A stretch of 64,000 nucleotides of DNA from an uncultured bacterium (GTDB lineage Bacteria > Bacteroidota > Ignavibacteria > OLB7), in assembly GCA_966250335.1 (NCBI GenBank), contig CBINGZ010000024.1, positions 10,842-74,841 of the forward strand, in the 5' to 3' direction. The notes beneath the pieces are model-generated. The model did no database searches. It had not been told where the DNA came from and saw nothing but the letters and a program-made list of their open reading frames with translations. Shown one piece after another: positions 23,902 to 56,800 of the stretch (position 1 is the first letter of the stretch; every line of letters begins with the position of its first letter). The position numbers and the translations under genes were made by a program.

Positions 23902-24378
23902 TTAGAATTTCACGTCGAACTTCCCCTCGGTGATCGAGCGGCTTCCGCTCCCTCCCTGTGCCTCCGCTGCCTCGAACGAGAAGGTGCCGGTGGCGCCGGA
24001 GGAGGAGATCCTCTCCACCGTGATCGTTCCGCTCGACCCGCTGAAGATCTTTACGCTGATTCCTCCCGTGGAGGTCGATTCCGTGTAGGTGGCGTTGACC
24101 CCGGCGAACGGGTTGACCTGGAAGGTGCCGGGTCCCGAGGCCATCGCCGTCAGGTTGATCTGGTTGTTGTTCCCACCGTTGATCTGCGATCCTCCGATCG
24201 AAAGAACGTTGTTCGTCCAGACCGCCTGGACGTTCGTGGCCGACCAGTTGCTGCCGCTCACCTTGGCGCTGACCGATCCGTTCGGCGTGGAATTCCCCGT
24301 CGGCTCGTCGTCGCCGCATCCGGCGACCGGGATCAGGGTGCATGCCAGAAGAAGGAAGAGTGCAATCCGATTTCTCAT
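23902..24378 (-). CDS. Beta-rich lipoprotein (DUF6252-like)
   Basis: Lipobox VAG-C, then SAKVSGSNWSAT...GTFSFEA...ITEGKFDVKF. Confidence 0.7.
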   Translation of the reverse strand: MRNRIALFLLLACTLIPVAGCGDDEPTGNSTPNGSVSAKVSGSNWSATNVQAVWTNNVLSIGGSQINGGNNNQINLTAMASGPGTFQVNPFAGVNATYTESTSTGGISVKIFSGSSGTITVERISSSGATGTFSFEAAEAQGGSGSRSITEGKFDVKF

Positions 24379-24495
24379 GGTTCCGTGCTCCGTCGTTCCT
24401 ATATGTGTGACTGTGGACTCGGTACAAACATCCTCACGTCCGGGGCGGGAGAAAAACCGGCTTTCGGCATATTCTTACCGCCGGCCCGGGGGAGC

Positions 24496-24503
24496 GCCGG
24501 TTC
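24496..24503 (+). repeat. 8-bp target site duplication GCCGGTTC (left copy)
   Basis: Immediately precedes the left TIR; identical to 27885-27892. Confidence 0.9.
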
Positions 24504-24707
24504 GGTAGTGTCTCATTTCCATTTTCCCGATTCTGGGGGACTTCGTAACGTTGCCGATCGACAGAGAGCCGGATAGATTGGGAGCATCCAAACATGCCAC
24601 GGCTTCGGCCGTTCTCCTTATCCACGGCTCAACCGTCCGGTCACCGTGAGGCCCGGAGCGCCTAGCATGGCGCGGATAACGGTTGAGCCGTTCTATCCGA
24701 ACATGCT

Positions 24708-24926
24708 ATGTCTACCTTCACGCAGGAACACAGTCGGGGGTTATCCCCGCCCGTACGTGTTACCGTCATCGACCGGCTGAACTACATCGCCGCGTTCGTC
24801 GATCTCCTCCGCGACTCCTTCGAGCTGGCGAACAGAGACTACGGGCCGAGCTTCGGGAACAAGGTCGTGGTGGTCAACTACATCGATCAGGAGCTTGCGG
24901 CGCTGGCGTCCGAACTGGAACAGTAG
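24708..24926 (+). CDS. Small hypothetical protein (72 aa) inside the IS
   Basis: ORF with amphipathic helical character, convergent with the transposase; separated from it by hairpin 24945-24982. Confidence 0.5.
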   Translation: MSTFTQEHSRGLSPPVRVTVIDRLNYIAAFVDLLRDSFELANRDYGPSFGNKVVVVNYIDQELAALASELEQ

Positions 24927-24944
24927 AGCAAGGAAGCAAGTACG

Positions 24945-24982
24945 AACAGGCCCCGTCTGGATCACACCGGACGGGGCCTGTT
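24945..24982. terminator. Hairpin between convergent small ORF and transposase
   Basis: aacaggccccgtctgg / ccggacggggcctgtt 16-bp stem (one G-U). Confidence 0.65.
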
Positions 24983-24984
24983 GC

Positions 24985-25821
24985 TTACGGAACCAGCTTC
25001 GCGATATCCTCGATCGTCCAGAGCTTCGGCGTGACTCCCGCTTCCATCGCCGGGGTGACACGGAGGGACTTGTGGATACGGGCGAAGTTGTAATGCATGA
25101 AGTGGAGGGCGACCGCATGCGCATGGTTCTCCACCTTCTTTGAGAAGCCGTTCGTGAGCCGGGTAAACCGGCGCATCTGCATTCGCATCGTGAGGTTCTG
25201 GCGCTCTACGTAGGACGTGGAGATATGCTTACGATCCGGCGCGCCGTTGATGATCTCCTTCTTCGCCCCGGTGCATTCAGCCGGGCTATATCGCTTCTCT
25301 GATCCTTCGCCGTCCGGTGAGGGGCCGTAGATCTTCACAAGCTGGGCATAGTCAACGTCGGCCCCGAACGCTTCGTCAATCGCCCGGACATAGACGTTCA
25401 GGCCGTCGCTGGTGATCTGTACGCGCTCCGCCAGTCGTCCGGCAAGGTCATTGATGAACGTTGCCGCACACTCTGCATCACGGGCACCGACAAGCCACGA
25501 CGGAATGAGCTTCGTATCGGCGTCTATGGCCGTCCATGTCCACACATCACCCACCGTTCCCCGCTCCTCCCGCATCGCCTCAGTCGCGTTCTTCTGCTTC
25601 GCGTAGACAAACGACCAAATCTCATCGACCTGTAGCCGCTTGCACGGCAGGTTCCGCAGGTGCTCATCCTGATAGGCTGCACACACCGTTCCAGCGTCCA
25701 CCAAGAGCTTCGTGACCGTGTTGATCGAGACATCTGCCATACGCGACGTAGCGCGAAGGCTTGTCCCCTCAACGAGGCAATGAAGGATCTGGGTCCGTTT
25801 AGCGAGCGAGAGCTTATTCAT
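24985..25821 (-). CDS. IS1-family DDE transposase (single ORF, HTH + DDE)
   Basis: HTH (SLRATSRMADVSINTVTKLL), QVDEIWSFV, WTWTAID, ITSDG, SYVERQNLTMRMQMRRFTRLTNGFSKK (InsB-like ERxNxTxR...FSK). Confidence 0.92.
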   Translation of the reverse strand: MNKLSLAKRTQILHCLVEGTSLRATSRMADVSINTVTKLLVDAGTVCAAYQDEHLRNLPCKRLQVDEIWSFVYAKQKNATEAMREERGTVGDVWTWTAIDADTKLIPSWLVGARDAECAATFINDLAGRLAERVQITSDGLNVYVRAIDEAFGADVDYAQLVKIYGPSPDGEGSEKRYSPAECTGAKKEIINGAPDRKHISTSYVERQNLTMRMQMRRFTRLTNGFSKKVENHAHAVALHFMHYNFARIHKSLRVTPAMEAGVTPKLWTIEDIAKLVP

Positions 25822-25927
25822 GGCACAAAGATATAGAATAATGCTTTACCGTACAAGCATAATAGTCAATTAGGCATTTTTATGCAAAAATCGTGTATTC
25901 TATACGCAAATACATTGCTAATATAAA

Positions 25928-25955
25928 AAAAATTAGCATGATGCCGCTAATTTTT
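25928..25955. promoter_or_regulatory. Palindromic operator-like site upstream of fic
   Basis: aaaaattagc-N8-gctaattttt perfect 10-bp arms in the AT-rich divergent promoter region. Confidence 0.5.
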
Positions 25956-26009
25956 CTTATATTAGCTCCATGTTAGCGCGTACAACTATAACATGAATGG
26001 AGGATTGAG

Positions 26010-27398
26010 ATGAGAGTTCCAAAGCGGCCGCCCAACTTCCCGAACTTATTTAAGACGATCTTGGAAGGCCCGGAGGGGTCACAGCGGTTAACTAAGATTG
26101 TGAGCAGTGGTATTGGCCCTACGCAAGCGGGTCAGTATAGGCATTGGCATACCCTTCGCTACTTGACTCCACCAGAGGGCCTTACCGTCGAAGAGTGGTG
26201 GGTGGGTATAAAGATGGCCCGCTCATTCATACAACACAAGATTCCGCTTGCTGATGCACAGGGCAAACCGATGCACTTCACGACCCCGGATATATTACAC
26301 AGGATGTGTCCGTTGATCGACCAAAGCTCTGCGGGATCAATAAGGAGTAGCGAGCAAGCGATTACCGCAACGGATCGTGACTTCTACATCTTTAAATCGC
26401 TTTCGGACGAAGCGATCACATCAAGCCAGATTGAAGGAGCGTCGACAACTCGGGAAGTAGCTAAAGAGATGATACGGACTGGTCGTCAGCCGATGGATAA
26501 GAGCGAGCGAATGATTTACAACAACTATTTGGCGATGATGTTCATCCGTACGATCAAAGATCAGCCGCTTACTCCAAAAATAATATTTGAAATCCATCAA
26601 ATACTTACCGACGGCACCCTTGATAAGCCTGAAGCGGCCGGTAGATTACGGCGAAGCGATGAAGATATACGTATTTTTGACGATGTTTCCAACGAGGTTT
26701 TGCATGTCCCGCCGCCAGCGGATGAGCTTCGGTCGCGCATGAAAGCGATGTGTGATTTTGCCAATGATGTCGATTCCAGCAACTACATTCATCCCGTAAT
26801 CCGGGCTATACTGCTGCATTTTTGGCTTGCCTATGACCATCCATTCGTCGATGGCAATGGGAGAACCGCACGCGCTCTGTTCTATTGGCTAATGGCAAGG
26901 CAACAGTATTGGCTTTTTGAATTCATCTCAATATCAAGCATAATCCACGAGGGGCCTGCAAACTATGCACGGTCCTTTCTATACGTTGAAACGGATGATT
27001 GCGATATTACATACTTCATACTTAACCAATTAGCTGTTGTGCTCCGTGCTATTGACGATCTGCATGATTATCTGCGCCGAAAGGAAACTGAGATTGCGGA
27101 AGTCCGTGAGCTGCTGTCAAAGACAAAACTTGCTTCATTGATGTTTAATCATCGACAAATGGCGATCATCAATCATAGTCTGAAAAATAGCCATTCGATA
27201 TACACCTCGGAGTCGCATCGACGTTCGCACAATGTAAGCCCCCAGACCGCAAGGACTGATCTGCTTGAACTTGCCAAGCATGGGCTGCTATCGCAACACA
27301 AAAGCGGTGGCGCATATTACTTTAGCATTCCCGGTAATCTTAAGGATAGGATTATGGCTTTGGCTGATTCAGAATTCAAATCATCAACTGCGAAGTAG
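26010..27398 (+). CDS. Fic family protein (AMPylase) with C-terminal winged HTH
   Basis: Canonical HPFVDGNGRTAR motif; N-terminal inhibitory-type SSQIEG; C-terminal VSPQTARTDLLELAKHGLL; ggagg RBS; visibly AT-richer than flanking host genes. Confidence 0.93.
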   Translation: MRVPKRPPNFPNLFKTILEGPEGSQRLTKIVSSGIGPTQAGQYRHWHTLRYLTPPEGLTVEEWWVGIKMARSFIQHKIPLADAQGKPMHFTTPDILHRMCPLIDQSSAGSIRSSEQAITATDRDFYIFKSLSDEAITSSQIEGASTTREVAKEMIRTGRQPMDKSERMIYNNYLAMMFIRTIKDQPLTPKIIFEIHQILTDGTLDKPEAAGRLRRSDEDIRIFDDVSNEVLHVPPPADELRSRMKAMCDFANDVDSSNYIHPVIRAILLHFWLAYDHPFVDGNGRTARALFYWLMARQQYWLFEFISISSIIHEGPANYARSFLYVETDDCDITYFILNQLAVVLRAIDDLHDYLRRKETEIAEVRELLSKTKLASLMFNHRQMAIINHSLKNSHSIYTSESHRRSHNVSPQTARTDLLELAKHGLLSQHKSGGAYYFSIPGNLKDRIMALADSEFKSSTAK

Positions 27399-27446
27399 AT
27401 AGGCGTAGACGCAATCTATTTATGCTGTTGGTGCAGAAGCGAACAG

Positions 27447-27480
27447 GCGGGACACTTCCGATTTTTTGGAAGTGTCCCGC
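27447..27480. terminator. Hairpin between convergent fic and KGG genes
   Basis: 13-bp perfect stem gcgggacacttcc / ggaagtgtcccgc. Confidence 0.7.
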
Positions 27481-27503
27481 TATAGACTTTGATGCTGGCT
27501 GTC

Positions 27504-27746
27504 CTACTCTTTCTTCTTCCACCGTGCCGCTGCTGCCTTCTGCGCAATCTCCTTCCGCTGTCTTGGCGTCAGCTTTTCAGCCCGTGCCTTGCCCCCTTTG
27601 AGCCCTCCACGACGGCCTAGCGCGACCGCTGCCGGGTCTTTGGTCGGTTCCGGCTCTGCGGGTTCCTCAGCGTCGCCGGTGGCGATATCCAAGATCCGCT
27701 TGGCGCGCTGGTTCGGATCGCGGGGAAGGTTCTTCGGAGTCTTCAT
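27504..27746 (-). CDS. Small basic KGG-motif protein (80 aa)
   Basis: MKTPKNLPRDPNQRAKRILDIATG...KDPAAVALGRRGGLKGGKARAEKLTPRQRKEIAQKAAAARW; ATG 27746. Confidence 0.85.
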   Translation of the reverse strand: MKTPKNLPRDPNQRAKRILDIATGDAEEPAEPEPTKDPAAVALGRRGGLKGGKARAEKLTPRQRKEIAQKAAAARWKKKE

Positions 27747-27884
27747 GCGGGAGTTCTCTACCGTTGACGATGGATCGCTCAATGTCCCTCTTGGGGTTCC
27801 TTGAGCGGACAAGCATTCACGGTTACAAAGGTCGGGAACTCCGGGGGACTAGTGCAAGGGAAGAAATCAAACTGAGACACTACC

Positions 27885-27892
27885 GCCGGTTC
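27885..27892 (+). repeat. 8-bp target site duplication GCCGGTTC (right copy)
   Basis: Immediately follows the right TIR. Confidence 0.9.
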
Positions 27893-28049
27893 AGGCGGCT
27901 TGCAGGCATCTCCCCGAATCGGTAGTATTGCACGATTTTCTTCACGATGATAGCACGCCCGATCTTCGACCCTGCCTTGAACGACCCGGAATCCTCTCGC
28001 AGCAATCGATAGACAACCCCCCATCCTCAACCTACTTGTAGGGACTTTC

Positions 28050-46882: not shown

Positions 46883-46966
46883 TGGAGGGCTCTCACGCCC
46901 CGTAACATTGTGGCGTACTTCAAGGCCGGGACCTCCCCGGACCTGCTTACCAGCGAAGATTACGCC

Positions 46967-48718
46967 ATGTCCTACTTCGATATCGTCTTGCGATGCGCAT
47001 CCCGGAGCCTTCGGGTCGCTCTCTCTCTCTGGTTCGCCGCGGCCCTCTCGGTCGGGAGTGTGTCGGCGCAGTTCCTCGTCAGGAACATCAACACGGCGGG
47101 TGGTGGAGCGAACGGCTCGACCCCCGCGAAGCTCGTCGATCTGTCGGGGACCATCTTCTTCGCCGGGACCGCGGCGGGGACGGCACGGGAACTCTGGAAG
47201 AGCGACGGGACCGAAGCGGGGACGCTTCTGGTGCGCGACGTCAATCAGGGGAACAGGAACGGCATCGGCGACAACCCGGAACTGGTCGCGGTCGGGGAGA
47301 CGATCTTCTTCATCGCGACCGACGGGGTCTCCGGTTACGAGCTCTGGAAGAGCGACGGGACCGAAACCGGAACTATCATGGTAAGAGATATCCGCCCCGG
47401 GGCGGAAAGCTCCATGCCCGATATCGACGGTCTCCCCGCCGCGCTTACCATCTCCGGTTCCACCCTCTACTTCGTGGCGAACGACGGAACGCACGGGTTC
47501 GAACTCTGGAAAAGCGACGGCACGGCCGAGGGGACGGTGATGGTACGGGACCTCAATCCCGGAGGGGATGCCTTCAGCGACCAGGAGATCCCGATGATCG
47601 ATATCAACGGCACGATATTCTTCGGCGCCGACGACGGAACGAGCGGCGCGGAGCTCTGGAAGAGCGACGGCACCGGGGCGGGAACCGTACCGGTGAAGGA
47701 TATCTACCCCGGCGCGGAGTCGTCGGTCCTGAAGTGGTTCGTCGATCTGGAGGGTACGCTTCTCTTCTCCGCGCTCGACGGCGCGACGGGAGTCGAGCTC
47801 TGGAAAAGCGACGGCACGGCCGGTGGGACCACGATCGTGCGCGACATCCTCGACGGCACCGGAAGCTCCGTTCCGACCGGCCTCACCCTTCTCGACGGCT
47901 TCGTCTATTTCGCCGCGGCCGACGGCGACAGAGGGATCGAACTCTGGAGGAGCGACGGCACATCGGCCGGCACGACGATGATCGAGGTGCATCAGGGGGC
48001 CGCGGGATCGCTCCCCCTCTTTCTGACCCCGGTCGGCGACAGGCTCTATTTTCTTGCGAACGACGCCGAGCATGGTGACGAGCTTCGCCTCTACGATCCC
48101 TCCACGGGCGCCGTGACGCTCGTCCGGGATATCAACCCCGGCACGCCGCACGGGCTTCTTCGCGGCCTCTCGCAACTCGTCTCGTTCGACGGGAAGCTCT
48201 ACGTCGGCGCGCGGGACGGAGGGGCCTCGGCGGTCGGCCCGCTCGAGCTGGAACCGTGGGTCAGCGACGGGACGGAGGCCGGAACCCGGCTTCTCAGGGA
48301 TATCTATCCCGGCACCGTCGGCTCGGCGCCGAAGGAGTTCACGGTCTCCGGCGAGAATCTCTTCTTCTCCGCAAAGGACGATCGGAACGGACAGGAGCTC
48401 TGGGCCCTGAAGCGGAGCGGCTCATCGTCGACACCCCCTGTCGTATCGGGCGATGCTTCACTTCGCATCTCCCGGACCACTCCCAATCCCGCCAGGGAGA
48501 CGATCACGATCTCATACACGCTGGCGCAGGCGGGAAAGGCGACGATGACGCTCCACGATATTCTTGGAAGAAGATCCGCGATCCTTCTCGACACCTATCT
48601 TCCTGAAGGATCGCATACGGTGGAATGCGACGTCCGGGATCTTCCCGCCGGTCTCTACTCATGCCGGCTCGTCGCGGGGGATGCGATCGTATCACGAACG
48701 GTGGTTGTCCGAAAATAA
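46967..48718 (+). CDS. ELWxxDGT repeat protein with T9SS type A sorting domain
   Basis: Signal peptide; six ELW[KR]SDGT repeats plus degenerate copies; C-terminal PNPARE...LPAGLYSCRL. Confidence 0.92.
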   Translation: MSYFDIVLRCASRSLRVALSLWFAAALSVGSVSAQFLVRNINTAGGGANGSTPAKLVDLSGTIFFAGTAAGTARELWKSDGTEAGTLLVRDVNQGNRNGIGDNPELVAVGETIFFIATDGVSGYELWKSDGTETGTIMVRDIRPGAESSMPDIDGLPAALTISGSTLYFVANDGTHGFELWKSDGTAEGTVMVRDLNPGGDAFSDQEIPMIDINGTIFFGADDGTSGAELWKSDGTGAGTVPVKDIYPGAESSVLKWFVDLEGTLLFSALDGATGVELWKSDGTAGGTTIVRDILDGTGSSVPTGLTLLDGFVYFAAADGDRGIELWRSDGTSAGTTMIEVHQGAAGSLPLFLTPVGDRLYFLANDAEHGDELRLYDPSTGAVTLVRDINPGTPHGLLRGLSQLVSFDGKLYVGARDGGASAVGPLELEPWVSDGTEAGTRLLRDIYPGTVGSAPKEFTVSGENLFFSAKDDRNGQELWALKRSGSSSTPPVVSGDASLRISRTTPNPARETITISYTLAQAGKATMTLHDILGRRSAILLDTYLPEGSHTVECDVRDLPAGLYSCRLVAGDAIVSRTVVVRK

Positions 48719-49998: not shown

Positions 49999-50511
49999 TT
50001 ATTCGACTTTTATATCGCCGTACGTTGTGTATTCCTCGGTCCCGCGGACGACCGCGATGAAGGCCCGATAGATGCCCGGCGTCAGGTCGGCGAGGTTGAA
50101 CTCTCTGACGTTCGTTCCTTCGGGCATGAACTCTTCCAGCAGAACCTTCTGGAGCTTCCCCGGAGCCGAGTCGAGCCAGATCCGCACCGAGTCGTCCTGT
50201 ACCAGAGCGAGTCGTATCGAGACCCGCTCCTGCACCGGATTGGGAATTGCAGGGCTGAGGGTCAGTCCCACCTGCGGCAGCGAGCGCCAGTCGTCCGAGG
50301 CGTCGCCGATCGTTCCCAGCAGCCTGCCGTCTTCCGCCGTGAGCTGAATCCCGGTGAACCCGGCCCTGGTAGTGTCGGTCGTATCTGTCGTGTCCGTCTT
50401 GTCGTACTTGATGGTCTCATAGTCGCAGCCCGTCATGGTCAGGAGCATGAAGGAGGCAAGAAGCAGCATGAGGATGATGAGTCCCGAGCGAGGCGATGTC
50501 GTTGTCTTCAT
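49999..50511 (-). CDS. Lipoprotein with T9SS-CTD-like C-terminal Ig fold
   Basis: Lipobox MTG-C; DTT repeats; PAIPNPVQ...LTPGIYRA. Confidence 0.7.
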   Translation of the reverse strand: MKTTTSPRSGLIILMLLLASFMLLTMTGCDYETIKYDKTDTTDTTDTTRAGFTGIQLTAEDGRLLGTIGDASDDWRSLPQVGLTLSPAIPNPVQERVSIRLALVQDDSVRIWLDSAPGKLQKVLLEEFMPEGTNVREFNLADLTPGIYRAFIAVVRGTEEYTTYGDIKVE

Positions 50512-50683: not shown

Positions 50684-51667
50684 TCACTCTCTCCCCGGCA
50701 TCTCGATCGAGATCACCTGGTCCAACCCTCGTTTGAATCCATCGGAATCGGATAATACTCGCGTCCTGGGCTCCACGAAGGGGAAGCGGAGCCCGCGGGC
50801 CCCTTCGTCCGGCGCCGTCGTTCCGTGACGGCGTACGATATGTTTATGGGATGTGGCCTCGGTATTGGTCGACATCTTCAGCAGAGGCGTCTTCACCTCC
50901 GCTATGCCGTGCAGCGCCGACCATTCGGCGGGCCAGGAGAGGACTTCCAGCAGCAGATCGACCTCCTCGGCGTAACCGAGCTCGCGCCCCAGATCGAGAA
51001 GTCGTCGCCCGAGCGCGGCGCTCCGTTCGCACGAGAGGCTGCAGGGGAGATGAGGGAGCGCACCGAGGCCGAGCCGGGCCAGCATGAAGTTCGTCTCGAC
51101 GGGACCGTCGATCTCCAGCGTCCGATCGTCGATCGCTTCCGGAGCGCTCGACAGCGCCGCCTGCCACATAGAGTCGACGGCGTCACATTCCTTCATGCCG
51201 CGATAGAATTCGACACAGCACGGCGGGTAGCCGAAGATCTCTCCCAGCGCCTCGACATCATCAGCTTCCCACGCCTCCCGGAGCCTCGGCAGAGTTTCGG
51301 CGCGGGCCACGGCGATATGGAAGAACATTGAGGCGGGATCATTCCCACGGTCGAAGAACGGTCCGCCGGAGAGGAGCTCCATTTCGAGCGGGAGCCCTTC
51401 CAGACCCGACTCCGCCCATCGTTGTCTGGCCGTGCTGAATGTCCCGAGCGACTCTGCGACGATCGCCCCTTCCCTGATGCCGTGCTCCACGGAGCGCCAT
51501 AGTATATCGCGCCATGCCGTCGTGATCCTTCGGAACCGGGGCTCCCAGATCCTCCGTGCCGTATCGCCGACCCAGCTTACACGGACGAAGGGGTGAAGAG
51601 AGAAGTCGAGCGTCTCGAGCTTCCGGAAGCGGGAGCTGCTCCCTGCGTCGATCGCGATATTCGTCAC
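50684..51667 (-). CDS. Unknown Cys-motif protein (DUF483-like), last gene of the RiPP operon
   Basis: GTG 51667 overlaps the rSAM stop (GTGA); 327 aa; motifs LGEIFGYPPCCVEFY, PHLPCSLSC, SWPAEWSALHGIAEVKTP. Confidence 0.75.
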   Translation of the reverse strand: MTNIAIDAGSSSRFRKLETLDFSLHPFVRVSWVGDTARRIWEPRFRRITTAWRDILWRSVEHGIREGAIVAESLGTFSTARQRWAESGLEGLPLEMELLSGGPFFDRGNDPASMFFHIAVARAETLPRLREAWEADDVEALGEIFGYPPCCVEFYRGMKECDAVDSMWQAALSSAPEAIDDRTLEIDGPVETNFMLARLGLGALPHLPCSLSCERSAALGRRLLDLGRELGYAEEVDLLLEVLSWPAEWSALHGIAEVKTPLLKMSTNTEATSHKHIVRRHGTTAPDEGARGLRFPFVEPRTRVLSDSDGFKRGLDQVISIEMPGRE

Positions 51668-52869
51668 AGCAGTTCCTCCGCCGGTTGAAGAGCAGTATCG
51701 TGAGCCGAGCCTTCCGTGACGCGACGCATCGCCTCGACGATCGGTATCGACATGCCGAACCGCCACCCGTCGAGCATCGCCTGTTCGACGGCGGGCCGGG
51801 AGGGGTGGAGCGAGAGGGGAAGGGAACCCGCGTCGAGGATCTCCTTCTCCAGCCGTTCGTAGAGTCCCATCCAGACATGGCAATGTTCGGAGCGGTTTCT
51901 CCAGTCCCCCTCCAGCGAGGTGCCGGGACAGTTCCCCTTGCACATCAGGAAGAACCGGCACTCCCGGCAGCCGAGATATTCCTGCGGTGTATGGTAGAGT
52001 GCGATGTATCGTTCGAACCCTTCGCTCTCCGACTTCACGAAGTCTATGCCGTCCTTGTTGGTGCGCCCGCAGTTGCTCCTCTGTCCGTTCCCCTCGATCC
52101 CCTGAACGGCTCTCGTGGTGTACGGATCGCAGCCGGCCCAGACGCATGAGCAGACTTCGTCGCGGCCGTGGAGAAGTCGGCGCATCTCCTGGAAGAGATC
52201 GAAGCGGAGCGTGGTGAGGCGCTCGTTCTCGAACATCAGGAACGACTCGAGCATGGCAAGATTTTCCTCCGGAGACATCGCGTACTTCTCCCGGATCGCC
52301 CCCTGTTCCACCTCCAGCAGATGGAGCCGCGCGGAGGTCACTCCCATGCGTTCGATCTCCAGCAGCCATTCGAACAGGAGCGGCAGCCGTTCCGGTGATC
52401 CGTTGCCTCGATGCATGGTGAGGATAAGGGCCGGAGGAATTCCCTCGGCGCAGAGTCGACGTATCGCATTGTGAGTCGCCTCGGTCGCGGCGCGCGTCCG
52501 CTCCAGCGTTCCCACCCATCGGACGTCGTTCAGCGCCCCGGGACCGTCCACCGATACCCCAACCTGGACGCCGTACGCCTTGAACATCCTGATATGTTCG
52601 TCGTTGACGAGCACGCCGTTGGTCTGTATCTGATTACGACCGAACCGCGAGTACCCCCACGACCAGAGCTCCTCAAGGTCCCGTTCCGGCACCAGCAGCG
52701 GCTCGCCGCCGAAGAGGGTGAACGGCTCCCCGGCCGCCTCGATCGCCCGCATGATCCCCGGAAGATCGTACTGATGGAGGACATTGGCCGCGTCGCGCTG
52801 CGGGTTCTGGTAGCAGTACTGGCACTGGATGTTGCATTTCACACCCAGGGGACGCACTTCGACGCTCAT
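51664..52869 (-). CDS. Radical SAM/SPASM domain enzyme (putative peptide maturase)
   Basis: CNIQCQYC, FGGEPLL, IQTNG, GVSVDGP; C-terminal Cys array including C-x2-C-x5-C-x3-C (CRECRFFLMCKGNC). Confidence 0.9.
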   Translation of the reverse strand: MSVEVRPLGVKCNIQCQYCYQNPQRDAANVLHQYDLPGIMRAIEAAGEPFTLFGGEPLLVPERDLEELWSWGYSRFGRNQIQTNGVLVNDEHIRMFKAYGVQVGVSVDGPGALNDVRWVGTLERTRAATEATHNAIRRLCAEGIPPALILTMHRGNGSPERLPLLFEWLLEIERMGVTSARLHLLEVEQGAIREKYAMSPEENLAMLESFLMFENERLTTLRFDLFQEMRRLLHGRDEVCSCVWAGCDPYTTRAVQGIEGNGQRSNCGRTNKDGIDFVKSESEGFERYIALYHTPQEYLGCRECRFFLMCKGNCPGTSLEGDWRNRSEHCHVWMGLYERLEKEILDAGSLPLSLHPSRPAVEQAMLDGWRFGMSIPIVEAMRRVTEGSAHDTALQPAEELL

Positions 52870-54857
52870 GGACGCTCCGCTGGTTGAAGTTCGTCGATCG
52901 TGTCGGGAGTGAACCGCTCCTCGGTCGACGGTTCGGCAGGTGGATCGAGAAGCGAGCCGACGGGGTTTCGCTCCAGCTTCTCCGGCGGCCGCACCAGCCT
53001 GCCGGTTTCGACCACCAGGGAGAGGGCCCGGCCTCCGTCGACGAGAATGTATCCCAGATCGACAAGTCCGTTGAATGTCGTCGTGTGATCCTTGTCGCTC
53101 TCCTCCGTCAGCTTCGCGAGCGTCCGTTCCACCTGCGCCGGCTCGCGGAACAGCTCGAGCATCCGCAGCTCATCGGGCTCCACGAACCTCCAGCGCTCGC
53201 GCGAGCAGAAGCGGGTATCCTTGATCGCGGCCAGCGGTCCGATATGGATCAGCATCAGGCAGGGGGGCTCTTCGCGATTGTCGGCGCGTCGTCGCCAGTT
53301 CGCGACCGCCTCGCGTATCGGCGCCACGTAATCCCCCGGATCGACGTCGGTGGGCGTGCCGTCGAAGAAGTAGGCGATCTCGGGAAGGAGGGAGGGATCG
53401 ATGTCGTGGATCACTCCGTAGGCCGGTGTCGGGACCACGTCGACGAAGCCGAGCCTGGCCGACTGTTCGTAGTAGGGACTGAAGCGGTCGAGCCGGACCT
53501 GCGATATTCCCGACGGAGGATCGAGATGTTCGAGCAGGAGCATCACCTCGGCCATTCTCCGATACTGTTCCCCGCGCTCCCCCGGAAATCCCCACAACAT
53601 GTTCCAGATCGATCGTATGCCGATCTCCTGACAGGTGCGCAGAAGCCGCACGTTCTGGAGCATCGACACCCCTTTCTCCATCAGGTTCAGGATATCGTCG
53701 TCCAGGCTCTCGATGCCGGGCTGAATCCACGTCACGCCGCCGCGCGCGATCTGCGTGAGCTGCTCGGCGGTCATGTTCGACTTGATCTCGTAGAAGAAGG
53801 TGAGCGGAGGAACCCGTTCGGCAAGGGGACGGAAGACCGTCTCCACATGCTGCATGTGCATGATGTTGTCTGCCGCCTCGAAGAGATCGACCCCCCATCG
53901 GGAATGGAGAGTATCGATCTCCTCAAGTATCCTGGCGGGAGATTTTACCCGGTAGGTCATTCCCTTGCCGTTCAACCCGCAGAATCGGCAGTGCTTCTTT
54001 GCTCCCCACCAGCAGCCGCGCGACGTCTCGAAGAGCATCCCCACATCCACGCGGTCGCGGTAGCTCATCAGCGAGAGGGTGCCGAAGTAGTCGTCGAAGC
54101 TGGGGATCGGAAGTTCGTCCAGGTCGGAGATGAATTCAATATCGCTGCTCGATCCGTTGAGTGAAATCGATACGGGGGGGAGGGAGATCGTGCGCCCTTC
54201 ATCCCCGCGTTCCCGCCTGAAGACCCCGACTCCGTCGCCCGGCGGAGAGTCACCCGCCAGAATGCGCTGAGCCGCATCGGGAAACGATCTGTCGGATTCT
54301 CCCGAGAAGACGTAGTCGATGAAGGGATAGGCCGTCAGCAGCGCCCGTCCCATCGGCCCTTCGCAGTTGGCGCCGCCGAAGCAGAGAACGACCCCGGGGT
54401 TGAACTCCTTCAGCCGTCGCGCGATCGCCAGCGACGCGCAGGTCTGCTGGAAGCTGCTGGAGAAGCCGACGATCTGGGCGCCGGAGTCGGCCAGCTTCCA
54501 TGCCGAGCGCTCGACGAACTCATCGGTCAGCTCGCGCAATTGCAGGACCTTCCTGAACCTGTCGGTTCCGAGATAACCTTCGAGCCATCGGATATACTCC
54601 CGTTCCCCGGCCGTTCCGCGCTCGCCGTTCAGCGTACGCGCGAAGGTCCACTCGCCGATGAGAAACTTGGTGGCTGTACGCTCCGCGATATATTCGGTGA
54701 TCTCTACTCCCGCCGTTTCGGCAAAGCGCATGTTGAGATATTCTATCCGCGTCGCGATTCCGAGCGCCTCCAGCGACCCCTTCAACGTGCTGACGCCGAG
54801 CGCGGGGCGCACCACCGACAGGTAGGGGGCCGTGACGAAGATGACGGAATCGCTCAT
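52866..54857 (-). CDS. Cobalamin-dependent RiPP maturation radical SAM C-methyltransferase (TIGR03975-like)
   Basis: True start ATG 54857 (ATGA overlap), 663 aa; RPALGVSTLK, B12-binding IVGFSSSFQQ...FGGANCEG, ETSRGCWWGAKKHCRFCGLNG (CX7CX2C), IQPGIESL, WNMLWGFPGE, RLDRFSPY. Confidence 0.9.
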   Translation of the reverse strand: MSDSVIFVTAPYLSVVRPALGVSTLKGSLEALGIATRIEYLNMRFAETAGVEITEYIAERTATKFLIGEWTFARTLNGERGTAGEREYIRWLEGYLGTDRFRKVLQLRELTDEFVERSAWKLADSGAQIVGFSSSFQQTCASLAIARRLKEFNPGVVLCFGGANCEGPMGRALLTAYPFIDYVFSGESDRSFPDAAQRILAGDSPPGDGVGVFRRERGDEGRTISLPPVSISLNGSSSDIEFISDLDELPIPSFDDYFGTLSLMSYRDRVDVGMLFETSRGCWWGAKKHCRFCGLNGKGMTYRVKSPARILEEIDTLHSRWGVDLFEAADNIMHMQHVETVFRPLAERVPPLTFFYEIKSNMTAEQLTQIARGGVTWIQPGIESLDDDILNLMEKGVSMLQNVRLLRTCQEIGIRSIWNMLWGFPGERGEQYRRMAEVMLLLEHLDPPSGISQVRLDRFSPYYEQSARLGFVDVVPTPAYGVIHDIDPSLLPEIAYFFDGTPTDVDPGDYVAPIREAVANWRRRADNREEPPCLMLIHIGPLAAIKDTRFCSRERWRFVEPDELRMLELFREPAQVERTLAKLTEESDKDHTTTFNGLVDLGYILVDGGRALSLVVETGRLVRPPEKLERNPVGSLLDPPAEPSTEERFTPDTIDELQPAERP

Positions 54858-55978
54858 AGGACGATCCTCCCGGCGGATGCCTCCGCGGGTTCGGCGCCGG
54901 CTGCGGGAATCGGTTCCCGCTCGATCGGAGGGGCAGGAGGTGTGAAGATGTCGAGAGCGCCGAGCACGGCGGCCTGCACGTTCAGCGACTGCATCTTCCC
55001 CGGCAGAGCCTTGTGAAGCAGCTCCACGTTGCGCGGGTTCCCGAACAGAACATCGCATGCGTTGCATATCCCGTCGAAATCGTCGTCGACGCAGGGACGC
55101 TCGGTTCCGGCCGTGATCTGCCGAAGCATCGCGACAGGCCCTTCGAACGCCAGCCACTGCATGACAGGGTCGGCGTAGGCGTTCCGGATCATCGTATCGA
55201 GGCTCTCCTTTCCCAGCTCGCCGATTCCCAGCCCATCGCGATACGGTATGACGCCGCAGCATGCAAGGACCTTGCCGTCCGGGTTGACGGAGAACTGACG
55301 GAGCATGGAGAGGCACGGTCCCTTGTACCCCCGTGCGCTGGCGCGGCGTCTCTCCATCTCCTCCTCGGATATGTTCTCGAGCGCACGCCCAGTGCTGTTG
55401 ATGAACGTTTCGTAGATATGGGCCTGGCCGCCTCCCCCTTCCGGCAGTCCGAGCAGACGGGCGATGTAGGCGCCGTCGATCCGCGTATCGGGTCCGACGA
55501 CGACGGCGATCTTCACCTCCAGCCCCAGTTCTTTCGCTGCGCGATATGCATGGACGACGCTGCTCTCCTTGAGGTATTCGGCGTGCTGGTCGTCGTACGA
55601 TATGGTCAGCCGTTCCAGACCGGCGGCGGCGAGCGGGGTCAGGAGGGAGAGGGCGCGCGCTTCGGTGGTGGCCCAGAACGCGCTGGTCACGACAGCGGAG
55701 CCGATGCCGTAGGAGCGTGCGTGACGGAAGGCGCGTTCCATGATATCGGGATGAAGGAACGGGTCCCCTCCGACGAAATCGAGTCGGCCGACGGAATCGA
55801 TACGCGCGGCGTCGTCGATCGCCGCCAGGATCTCCTCGGCCGAGAGATGCGCGATAAAGGTCATGTCGGAGCTGAAGCAGCAGTGGGAACAGCGCAGGGG
55901 ACAGCGATAGGTGATGTTGATCACAAGCTCCTGCGGAGAGATGCGGCTGGGGGAAGCAACGGTGCGTGATGTCGCCAT
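54854..55978 (-). CDS. Radical SAM enzyme, YydG/EpeE peptide epimerase-like
   Basis: CPLRCSHCCFSS, VTSAFWA, LTISYDDQHA, DGKVLACCG, FDGICNACDVLF parallel the B. subtilis YydG motifs as recalled (CxxxCDHCCFSS, NGFWG, LTISYDEYHA, DGEIYPCCS, FSSICGVCGSLF); ggagg RBS. Confidence 0.8.
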   Translation of the reverse strand: MATSRTVASPSRISPQELVINITYRCPLRCSHCCFSSDMTFIAHLSAEEILAAIDDAARIDSVGRLDFVGGDPFLHPDIMERAFRHARSYGIGSAVVTSAFWATTEARALSLLTPLAAAGLERLTISYDDQHAEYLKESSVVHAYRAAKELGLEVKIAVVVGPDTRIDGAYIARLLGLPEGGGGQAHIYETFINSTGRALENISEEEMERRRASARGYKGPCLSMLRQFSVNPDGKVLACCGVIPYRDGLGIGELGKESLDTMIRNAYADPVMQWLAFEGPVAMLRQITAGTERPCVDDDFDGICNACDVLFGNPRNVELLHKALPGKMQSLNVQAAVLGALDIFTPPAPPIEREPIPAAGAEPAEASAGRIVL

Positions 55979-56080
55979 TGGAAACGCTCCTCCATGAATA
56001 GTCGTGTAGGCGGCCGACGTCCTTCAAAACCCGGATCGGGACGGGCTCGTCACATGAATCGCGGGACGATCCGATCGAAA

Positions 56081-56113
56081 GGTCGTCACCCCACTGAAGG
56101 CGGGGTGACGACC
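56081..56113 (-). terminator. Stem-loop between precursor genes and maturase genes
   Basis: 12-bp perfect stem ggtcgtcacccc / ggggtgacgacc, 18 bp after the precursor 2 stop; only a short T-run follows on the minus strand. Confidence 0.65.
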
Positions 56114-56131
56114 ATATCGCAACCCGAATGA

Positions 56132-56371
56132 TCAGCCCACGTCGACGTGAACAATCGCCGACTGAGCGCCGGCGGCGTTCGCCGAAGCGAGCCTTTTCTG
56201 ATTGGCGTGGTTCCGGATCCTCTCGGCGGTCTCCGGATCGACTTCGATGCCCATATGAGCAAGCACCTCGTGCGGATCATTGGCGAGATCATCCAGGATG
56301 TTCTCACGATCCTTCAACGCGCCTGCTCTCTCATGGAGCGTCGCAGTGTCGGTGTCTATGACGATTCTCAT
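56132..56371 (-). CDS. Putative RiPP precursor peptide 2 (79 aa)
   Basis: aggagg RBS, ATG 56371; MRIVIDTDTATL...LANDPHEVLAHMGI...AQSAIVHVDVG; paralog of precursor 1. Confidence 0.85.
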   Translation of the reverse strand: MRIVIDTDTATLHERAGALKDRENILDDLANDPHEVLAHMGIEVDPETAERIRNHANQKRLASANAAGAQSAIVHVDVG

Positions 56372-56575
56372 TCGCTTGCCTCCTGCAATTGAGGTAGTGG
56401 CAGAGGGGGGATTCCGCTCCGTACGGTGCGGGCAATCCGATCCGCTGCCGGACGAGATATACGTCGGCTTTCGCGCGGAGGCGCCGAGACCGGCATGACC
56501 GGAATCGGTGAACACCGCGCGCAACGGTTCGGCGCGGGATCGACCCGACCGTTCGGCCGGATCTACCCGGTTCGA

Positions 56576-56800
56576 TCAGGCGTCGATATGAACGATGGAA
56601 GCCTGAACCGTTGAGTTCGACTTCGAGACGCCGGCATAATGGCGCAGAGCCTTTGCCGTTTCGTCATCGGCGGGGAGACCGAGCTGACGCAGCACACCGT
56701 GCGGGTCAACCGAGAGGCCTTCGAGAATGGAAGGATTGCTGCGGAGGCGTTCGCCGGCCAGTTCCAATGTTTCGACGTCGGTGTCGAGATTGAACTTCAT
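56576..56800 (-). CDS. Putative RiPP precursor peptide 1 (74 aa)
   Basis: aggag RBS; MKFNLDTDVETL...LSVDPHGVLRQLGL...VQASIVHIDA; first gene of the operon. Confidence 0.85.
   Translation of the reverse strand: MKFNLDTDVETLELAGERLRSNPSILEGLSVDPHGVLRQLGLPADDETAKALRHYAGVSKSNSTVQASIVHIDA

Follow-up and report, generated by a model that had tools for sequence, protein, structure and literature searches.

This study is concerned with rSAM3, a radical S-adenosylmethionine (SAM) enzyme of the SPASM type, and with the DUF483-like protein that is encoded directly after it, in a stretch of 64,000 nucleotides (hereafter, the window) from an uncultured bacterium of the Ignavibacteria (assembly GCA_966250335.1, contig CBINGZ010000024.1). 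According to the listing of open reading frames (ORFs), six genes of the minus strand make up a single unit, in the order precursor peptide A1, precursor peptide A2, an epimerase-like enzyme, a B12 enzyme, rSAM3 and its partner; all the coordinates of the operon that are given below refer to this strand. The gene of rSAM3 (51664..52869, 401 amino acids, ATG start; assigned from the ORF, Pfam, the alignment and the model) is the fifth of the six and is translationally coupled, with overlaps of 4 bp between neighbours throughout the last four genes. The partner (50684..51667, 327 amino acids, GTG start) overlaps the stop codon of rSAM3 by 4 bp; an earlier annotation of this DNA, made without database searches (the sequence-only reading), had overlooked this gene, which our comparison identifies as an obligatory companion of the enzyme.

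The two precursors are real ORFs with the endings that had been read from the sequence, i.e. IVHIDA and IVHVDVG. Precursor A1 (56576..56800, 74 amino acids, row 1 of our precursor alignment) ends in QASIVHIDA, with the motif H71-I-D73 located at 56582..56590, while precursor A2 (56132..56371, 79 amino acids, with the ATG at 56371 and AGGAGG upstream) ends in QSAIVHVDVG, with the motif H75-V-D77 located at 56141..56149. The two peptides are 36% identical, and no further homologue of either has been found in the 5.44-Mb genome.

The radical SAM core of rSAM3 is recognised by Pfam (Radical_SAM PF04055, 50.4 bits against a cut-off of 29.5; Fer4_12, 22.1 bits against 22), and together with the CxxxCxxC motif, CNIQCQYC at residues 12-19 (C12, C16 and C19; 52813..52836), it places the enzyme in the radical SAM superfamily. 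The motif is as close to the N-terminus as had been noted, and because it begins at residue 12 there is no room for an N-terminal recognition element of the kind found in maturases of peptides that are synthesised on the ribosome and modified after translation (RiPPs): the alignment reaches the start of anSME and ChlB, with residue 1 of the structural model aligning to residues 4-8 of these two enzymes and to residues 94-110 of CteB, SuiB and TigE, so that rSAM3 is an enzyme without an N-terminal recognition domain. The SPASM motif consists of seven C-terminal cysteines, arranged as Cx9-15Gx4C ... Cx2Cx5Cx3C ... C. In rSAM3 this array is complete: C247-x14-G-x4-C267 (CDPYTTRAVQGIEGNGQRSNC; 52069..52131), C301-x2-C304-x5-C310-x3-C314 (51928..51969) and C330. 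The Pfam SPASM model PF13186 gives no match to rSAM3 at E≤0.01, and it is therefore the motif and the fold that carry the assignment to the SPASM subgroup.

The comparison of 41 family sequences, which are 58-76% identical to the window protein, has revealed that the array which the sequence-only reading had called SPASM-like, from C247 to C330, is invariant in 41 of 41, as are all eight cysteines of the C-terminal clusters; the invariant cysteines include C12, C16, C19, C140, C242, C301, C304, C310 and C314. Two segments that had merely looked conserved are signatures of the family, being invariant almost residue by residue: in the first, C247, D248, T251, T252, A254, V255, G257, E259, G260 and G262 are followed by N266, C267, G268, R269, K272, D273 and G274; in the second, the invariant residues are D322, W323, R324, N325, R326 and C330.

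The AlphaFold model of rSAM3 has a mean predicted local distance difference test score (pLDDT) of 77.9 and a predicted template modelling score of 0.81, and its residues 1-350 cover the architecture of anSME and ChlB, including the SPASM domains. These two enzymes are tied as the best fold, each with Z 24.1 and a root-mean-square deviation of 3.4 (320 and 319 residues aligned), and are followed by CteB, TigE and SuiB with Z 18-20; they are also the nearest solved structures by sequence, anSME with E 1.2e-16 and then the triceptide synthase ChlB with 9e-11. None of the 54 NCBIfam matches comes near its own cut-off, and most of them span the N-terminal core only (DynA 68.2 bits against 450, YhhB 54.6 against 445, GrrM/OscB 50.6 against 310, FxsB 41.1 against 370, XyeB 39.7 against 450); the anSME model, TIGR03942, gives 66.4 bits against a cut-off of 349.45. 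Clustering with the anaerobic sulfatase maturases, which the sequence-only reading took as a sign that would speak against its proposal, is therefore decided neither by sequence nor by fold. Scans against PHROGs and PADLOC have returned generic radical SAM core matches only. Since neither sequence nor fold decides between anSME and the triceptide synthases, the genomic context must decide.

The family to which rSAM3 belongs is large: our protein search, with 6,682 candidates, has returned 2,550 at E≤0.001, and the best 119 matches beyond the protein itself are 60-76% identical over 93-100% of the query, and are named, if at all, just "radical SAM protein" or "uncharacterized protein". Judged by the titles of the records, this degree of conservation extends over the Actinomycetota, Chloroflexota, Cyanobacteriota, Acidobacteriota, Planctomycetota, Pseudomonadota, Rokubacteria, Bacteroidota and Gemmatimonadota, as well as in one archaeon of the Nitrososphaeraceae. 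As an observation in its own right, 16 of 48 rSAM3 homologues have a C-terminal tail of their own with 2-6 H-x-D motifs (e.g. HGDAPHGD), which resembles the presumed substrate; the tails are found in 16 of 37 loci with repeat proteins (L001, L002, L004, L007, L008, L012, L015, L016, L019-L021, L025, L026, L034, L041 and L048) and in 0 of 11 loci with leader peptides, and the window enzyme carries none.

The genomic context has been compared in 51 genome loci of the rSAM3 family, and the element that is most constantly located next to the enzyme is the partner, which is present in 47 of them and there invariably follows rSAM3 on its own strand, at a median distance of 102 bases downstream; three of the partnerless loci end within 252 bases of rSAM3, and the fourth (L051) is a weak match of 68 residues. 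The window partner is matched by PF04467 (DUF483) with 18.4 bits, under the cut-off of 25. Across 33 partner sequences, P148, C150, C151, C209, C213 and A256 are invariant and H206 is at least 90% conserved; these residues lie in the two family motifs GYPxCC and HxPCxxxC, which in the window are GYPPCC (C150 and C151; 51215..51232) and HLPCSLSC (H206, C209 and C213; 51029..51052), and the four cysteines with the near-invariant histidine may constitute a metal site. The structural model of the partner is confident (pLDDT 87.5), but its fold has no match in Foldseek at E≤0.001, and in a wide VIA search no clear relative has been found, the best hit being 2guk_B, a protein of unknown function, with Z 8.6 over 104 residues, and NleE reaching Z 5.3; in the ESM Atlas, only clusters of "hypothetical protein" are matched, with DUF483 on 13-20% of their members.

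In 3 of 48 loci rSAM3 and the partner are fused into a single polypeptide, each with all four cysteine motifs (L010:8001-10652, 883 amino acids; L024:8001-10769, 922 amino acids; L030:3313-5442, 709 amino acids), and L010 is among the leader-peptide loci that are closest to the window; the fusions, together with the gene order, suggest that the two proteins are physically coupled. The C-terminus of the partner is often fused to a class-I methyltransferase-like domain of some 180 residues, or such a domain is encoded nearby, with weak Pfam matches that stay below the cut-offs. The window partner is the short form without this domain, as in nine other loci, and the window's genome holds no close copy of the domain beyond a weak generic match. 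Of 69 loci searched, 24 also encode, along with the cassette, a protein of 280-318 amino acids that is not matched by Pfam (e.g. L100:13432-14388, L105:13408-14244 and L096:10937-11866); it is absent from the window's genome. Lacking both the methyltransferase-like domain and this protein, the window is a minimal version of the system.

The presumed substrates occur in two formats. The first is that of the window, i.e. a leader-type peptide that ends with the motif. When 18 precursors from 12 genomes are aligned, the columns without any variation are M1, L37 and G41 in the leader, H71 and D73; the histidine and the aspartate are the only invariant residues of the core (18 of 18), which in addition conserves a glutamine at -5 and, from -4 to -1, residues that are small or hydrophobic. 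An aromatic-x-X3 motif encoded beside the enzyme, as is characteristic of triceptide substrates, is therefore present in all 18 precursors as H-x-D. The claim that histidine is the only aromatic residue of both cores depends on the position at which the leader ends; in A1, H-Y is located 18-19 residues from the end. The profile of this alignment, searched against 1.84 billion representative proteins, has retrieved 124 proteins at E≤0.001, 96 of them with at most 130 amino acids; 64 of these short proteins end in HxD-x(0-2) and three in HxD-x3, while the remaining 29 share the leader and differ in their cores, which do not finish with H-x-D and in many cases are hydrophobic, with much Ala, Val, Gly and Pro. 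The leader segment DPxxFLxxxGIxIDDxTA is common to the H-x-D and the hydrophobic-core peptides. Matches to the NHLP clan are weak, being found in 3 of 18 precursors (E 0.0025-0.026) and not in A1. The same leader segment is also seen in 7-12 copies in proteins of about 1,000-2,400 amino acids (P0121, P0130, P0136, P0155, P0157, P0160, P0167 and others), for which reason the "leader" may derive from, or double as, a repeat domain.

The second format is a long protein with many copies of the motif. No more than 11 of the 51 loci contain the B12 enzyme and the epimerase, which hence lie outside the conserved core; in those 11 loci, 1-3 leader-type peptides are encoded per locus, and 16 of 16 end in HxD-x(0-3). 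In 23 other loci there is instead an ORF rich in H-x-D, usually located within 2.4 kb of rSAM3, with 12 to 84 motifs per protein under a strict rule (six or more HxD, with no fewer than one per 20 amino acids), under which 0 of 37,122 ORFs of at least 40 amino acids qualify in the window's own genome. In these 23 repeat proteins all but one of the 20 amino acids occur as the middle residue of H-x-D, and the flanks are variable; 753 of 811 histidines (93%) fall within H-x-D, a figure that is inflated by the selection of the set on this very motif. A twin-arginine signal (RRxxL-type, by a simple pattern) is present on 17 of the 23. In all, strict H-x-D substrates are encoded in 34 of 51 loci, and convincing substrates that are not counted as strict have been recognised by eye in seven more (L011, L013, L014, L017, L021, L023 and L050), for example a short twin-arginine peptide in L017 with the C-terminus ...HNDHLDASVHVDA. 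Two of these loci encode proteins of 1,054 and 1,063 amino acids (L011:10723-13887 and L014:10693-13884), in which about 35 H-x-D form an N-terminal array ahead of a large domain. A looser rule, which asked for at least 3 HxD within 40 amino acids, has been abandoned, having a background of 0.27 ORFs per 17 kb in the window's genome.

When loci are retrieved through the epimerase (at least 41% identity), 18 of 18 contain rSAM3, the B12 enzyme and precursors ending in HxD, and 17 of 18 contain the partner, with the 18th running off its contig. An alignment of 14 leader peptides without HxD was too diverse for a search of loci, while an alignment of three yielded one usable locus (L117) and one probable false match (L118); the former, in Geomonas oryzae (L117:8001-11231), is a single case where the leader type is shared, the core is hydrophobic (…VVGPTIAVAVAVGPAVAVAI) without HxD, an epimerase-like and a B12 enzyme are present, and both rSAM3 and the partner are absent. 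On viral contigs, conversely, 41 loci with rSAM3 homologues (42-53% identity) have the partner in 36 and strict HxD-rich ORFs in 26, and epimerase, B12 enzyme and leader peptides in 0 of 41. The 29 leader-family proteins, out of 96, that carry cores other than H-x-D suggest that the cassette consists of two modules, i.e. the leader with the epimerase and the B12 enzyme, and H-x-D with rSAM3 and the partner, and this picture fits the epimerase-retrieved, the Geomonas and the viral loci. If the second module is defined as an enzyme of the rSAM3 family, followed by a GYPxCC...HxPCxxxC partner, with an H-x-D substrate gene adjacent, all three elements are located within the window.

In a quick tree of 46 rows, from which six loci with matches shorter than 350 residues were omitted, nine proteobacterial enzymes of the leader type form one supported clade (Shimodaira-Hasegawa-like approximate likelihood ratio test 99), while the enzymes of the window, L005 and L010 have no resolved position among those of the repeat type; the tree is compatible with one origin of the leader-type context and also with several. 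Cultured carriers of the leader-type cassette are found in Bradyrhizobium, Sphingomonas, Paraburkholderia and Tahibacter.

Because members of the rSAM3 family are associated with H-x-D in substrates of two very different kinds, we consider it very probable that H-x-D is the site modified by the pair of rSAM3 and partner. The pair would then be a maturase that is directed by the motif, probably independently of a leader, and that modifies His-x-Asp covalently; in this operon it would act on H-I-D and H-V-D at the C-termini of the two ribosomal peptides. Since the repeat and the viral proteins have no such leader, the pair appears to recognise H-x-D itself and not the leader. The reaction that we propose starts with a 5'-deoxyadenosyl radical that would take a hydrogen atom from the β-carbon of the aspartate; the resulting carbon radical would add to C2 of the imidazole ring of the histidine that is located two residues upstream, and the electron would pass to an auxiliary SPASM cluster, with a three-residue His-Asp cyclophane (-2 Da) as the product. 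Both halves of such a crosslink have precedent in the triceptide literature that we draw on, which makes a His-Asp cyclophane plausible: C2 of histidine is the donor to the β-carbon of Ala, Arg, Lys or Ser at X3 in HaaB, YhhB, HtkB and MicB, and the β-carbon of aspartate is the acceptor from Tyr-C3 or Trp-C7 in YxdB and OscB. The His-Asp pair itself is not reported among the passages of that literature examined, and our search, which did not cover subscription journals and supplements, has found no paper that links H-x-D to a radical SAM enzyme; a paper on aminomalonate (PMC12186529) has proved to have no bearing on the matter. Of the cyclophane that the sequence-only reading had predicted, the H-x-D target is thus well supported by the comparison of genomes, and the chemistry is argued by analogy; granted that H-x-D is modified, we see about an even chance that the change is a carbon-carbon crosslink between His and Asp, and for the reading as a whole, a His-Asp cyclophane formed on H-x-D by the pair, the chance falls somewhat short of even.

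Several points weigh against this reading. The assignment of the target is one of guilt by association, and rSAM3 and the partner always travel together, so that genomes cannot tell which of the two would act on H-x-D; in 9 of the 51 loci (4 of them on short or cut contigs) there is no H-x-D candidate under any rule. As regards the enzyme, the triceptide family models stay under their cut-offs, the best being AmcB with 68.2 bits against 425, the structure does not separate anSME from ChlB, and the pLDDT of the model falls below 50 at residues 245-255, 268-282 and 312-325, i.e. in the region of the auxiliary clusters. As regards the product, a methyltransferase-like domain accompanies the partner in 31 of 51 loci, which hints that the usual product exceeds a crosslink, and in the HXS system, the closest in logic, the modification that is described in the part of the source drawn on here (PMC13128918) is +8 Da (+C/-4H), and not -2 Da.

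These last two points favour the alternative that survives best, which we regard as a serious possibility, if not a probable one, i.e. that the pair modifies H-x-D by a chemistry other than a carbon-carbon His-Asp cyclophane: a one-carbon bridge or an added carbon as in HXS, where a radical SAM enzyme and a small partner place the modification on SHRSS, a C-N or C-O link, a change of the imidazole only, or a change of the β-carbon of the aspartate alone (thiolation, hydroxylation or methylation), any of which might result in a metal-binding unit. The invariant cysteines and the near-invariant histidine of the partner point in the same direction, as they suggest a metal site and perhaps a catalysis of its own, and the prevalence of twin-arginine signals on the repeat proteins would be consistent with the export of a modified or metal-loaded protein. 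Against this stand the spacing, from an aromatic residue at i to a residue with a β-hydrogen at i+2, which is exactly the triceptide pattern, and the window cassette itself, which is without the methyltransferase domain in a genome that shows the weak generic match only.

It is unlikely that rSAM3 acts elsewhere, on the Q-A-x-hydrophobic stretch of the precursors or on the partner, with H-x-D serving as a recognition or metal-binding element. The conserved glutamine at -5 and the small or hydrophobic residues that follow it would suit the former target, and the invariant cysteines of the partner the latter, but the Q-A stretch is missing from the repeat proteins, though their enzymes are 58-64% identical to rSAM3, and what those proteins conserve is H-x-D alone, around a middle residue that is nearly free to vary. 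That rSAM3 is no peptide or protein maturase at all, but a sulfatase maturase of the anSME type, as its nearest structure by sequence and its tied best fold might indicate, or a nucleic-acid-modifying enzyme, as might follow from the DNA modification that a preprint on Thermus phages proposes for loci with a radical SAM enzyme and DUF483 in the part drawn on here, is very improbable, given the distance from the TIGR03942 cut-off, the fact that the genome has just two matches to PF00884 (sulfatase), both outside the window's contig C24 (on C11 and C4), the position of the gene among RiPP enzymes to which it is translationally coupled, and the strict H-x-D substrates beside two thirds of its relatives (34 of 51).

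A wider idea, which we put forward tentatively, is that the pair is a general machine for protein "stapling", in which every His-x-Asp would be converted, free of any leader, into a cross-linked or cofactor-like unit that may bind metal; the targets would be a single motif on a peptide, the repeats of exported proteins, and proteins of phage particles. The chemistry could then be novel for radical SAM enzymes, and the operon of the window would offer its minimal natural substrate. The family, which extends over at least ten bacterial phyla, an archaeon and viral contigs, is unusually conserved and its reaction is uncharacterised; the substrates of most members are long repeat proteins that are hard to analyse, while this operon offers a 74-residue peptide with a single motif, so that the chemistry of a peptide of the A1 type could reveal the reaction of the whole family. 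Recognition of a three-residue motif without a leader, if true, would also interest those who engineer peptides and proteins.

The two upstream radical SAM enzymes of the operon probably also epimerise and C-methylate A1 and A2. The radical SAM/SPASM enzyme of 374 amino acids (54854..55978) is matched by TIGR04078 with 105 bits, under the cut-off of 300, and by YydG (PDB 8ai6) with E 2e-17 over residues 18-320; on account of these matches it is a YydG/EpeE-like candidate peptide epimerase. The B12-binding radical SAM enzyme of 663 amino acids (52866..54857) is matched over its full length by TIGR03975, "RiPP maturation C-methyltransferase", with 596 bits against a cut-off of 281.85.

A scan of the operon for promoters and terminators has given no signal that exceeds the shuffled expectation. 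Three rhizosphere-metagenome runs of one study contain nearly all the sampled words of the operon (50684-56800; shares 0.93-1.00), and the assembly may derive from one of them; there is no RNA run among the sequencing runs listed as containing them. The search for rSAM3 in 40 relatives, of which 3 belong to the genus of this bacterium, 17 to its family and 20 to its class, has found it in none at E≤1e-30; hence the cassette is patchy in this lineage, where it was probably gained by transfer. Elsewhere in the window, G+C descends to 0.50-0.57 at 24001-28000, compared with about 0.63 across the remainder; a 602-residue protein with ELWKSDGT repeats and a sorting tail for type IX secretion (29.5 bits to Por_Secre_tail) is encoded on the plus strand at 46910-48718, and on the minus strand, at 49999-50511, a small ORF that resembles a lipoprotein is weakly matched by this tail as well, which points to an organism of the FCB group, related to the Bacteroidota.

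Compared with known systems, anSME resembles rSAM3 in its two auxiliary clusters, in the absence of a recognition element, and in structure by both measures, but differs from it by the TIGR03942 score, by the absence of a sulfatase nearby, and by its genomic context. In the Thermus phages Cumys and phiMa, an "rSAM module" has been described that consists of a radical SAM enzyme, DUF483 and a third gene, with fusions of DUF483 to methyltransferase or radical SAM domains (bioRxiv 10.1101/2024.08.14.607894); the likeness is one of the genes as described, the authors suggest DNA modification, and the part of the preprint that we draw on makes no mention of H-x-D. With clusters of the proteusin and epipeptide type, the operon shares the YydG-like epimerase and the B12 C-methyltransferase (TIGR03975 above its cut-off), and it differs from them by a leader whose kinship with the NHLP clan is no more than hinted at by the weak matches, by its very short cores, and by a third radical SAM enzyme that goes, with its partner, with an invariant C-terminal H-x-D.

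The HXS system, as presented in the part of PMC13128918 considered here, consists of the His-x-Ser repeat effector HxsA, matured by HxsB and HxsC with HxsD; as proposed for rSAM3, a radical SAM enzyme and a small partner modify a repeat of His-x-small residue in the cytoplasm before export, while the motif is H-x-S, two radical SAM enzymes take part, and no DUF483-like protein is involved. None of the best 25 of the 54 NCBIfam matches to rSAM3 (all at ≤68 bits) is an Hxs model. The triceptide synthases are, like rSAM3, compact enzymes with radical SAM and SPASM domains and no N-terminal domain, as exemplified by the fold of ChlB, and act on an aromatic-x-X3 motif in which His at position 1 and Asp at position 3 are known separately in the literature consulted; the rSAM3 family differs by its obligatory, sometimes fused, four-cysteine partner, by substrates that include virus-encoded proteins and whole exported proteins with dozens of motifs, and by a far higher conservation across phyla (58-76% identity). 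The leader-peptide form, to which the operon of the window belongs, is set apart within this family by its single C-terminal motif, on a peptide that would in addition be a substrate of an epimerase and of a C-methyltransferase.

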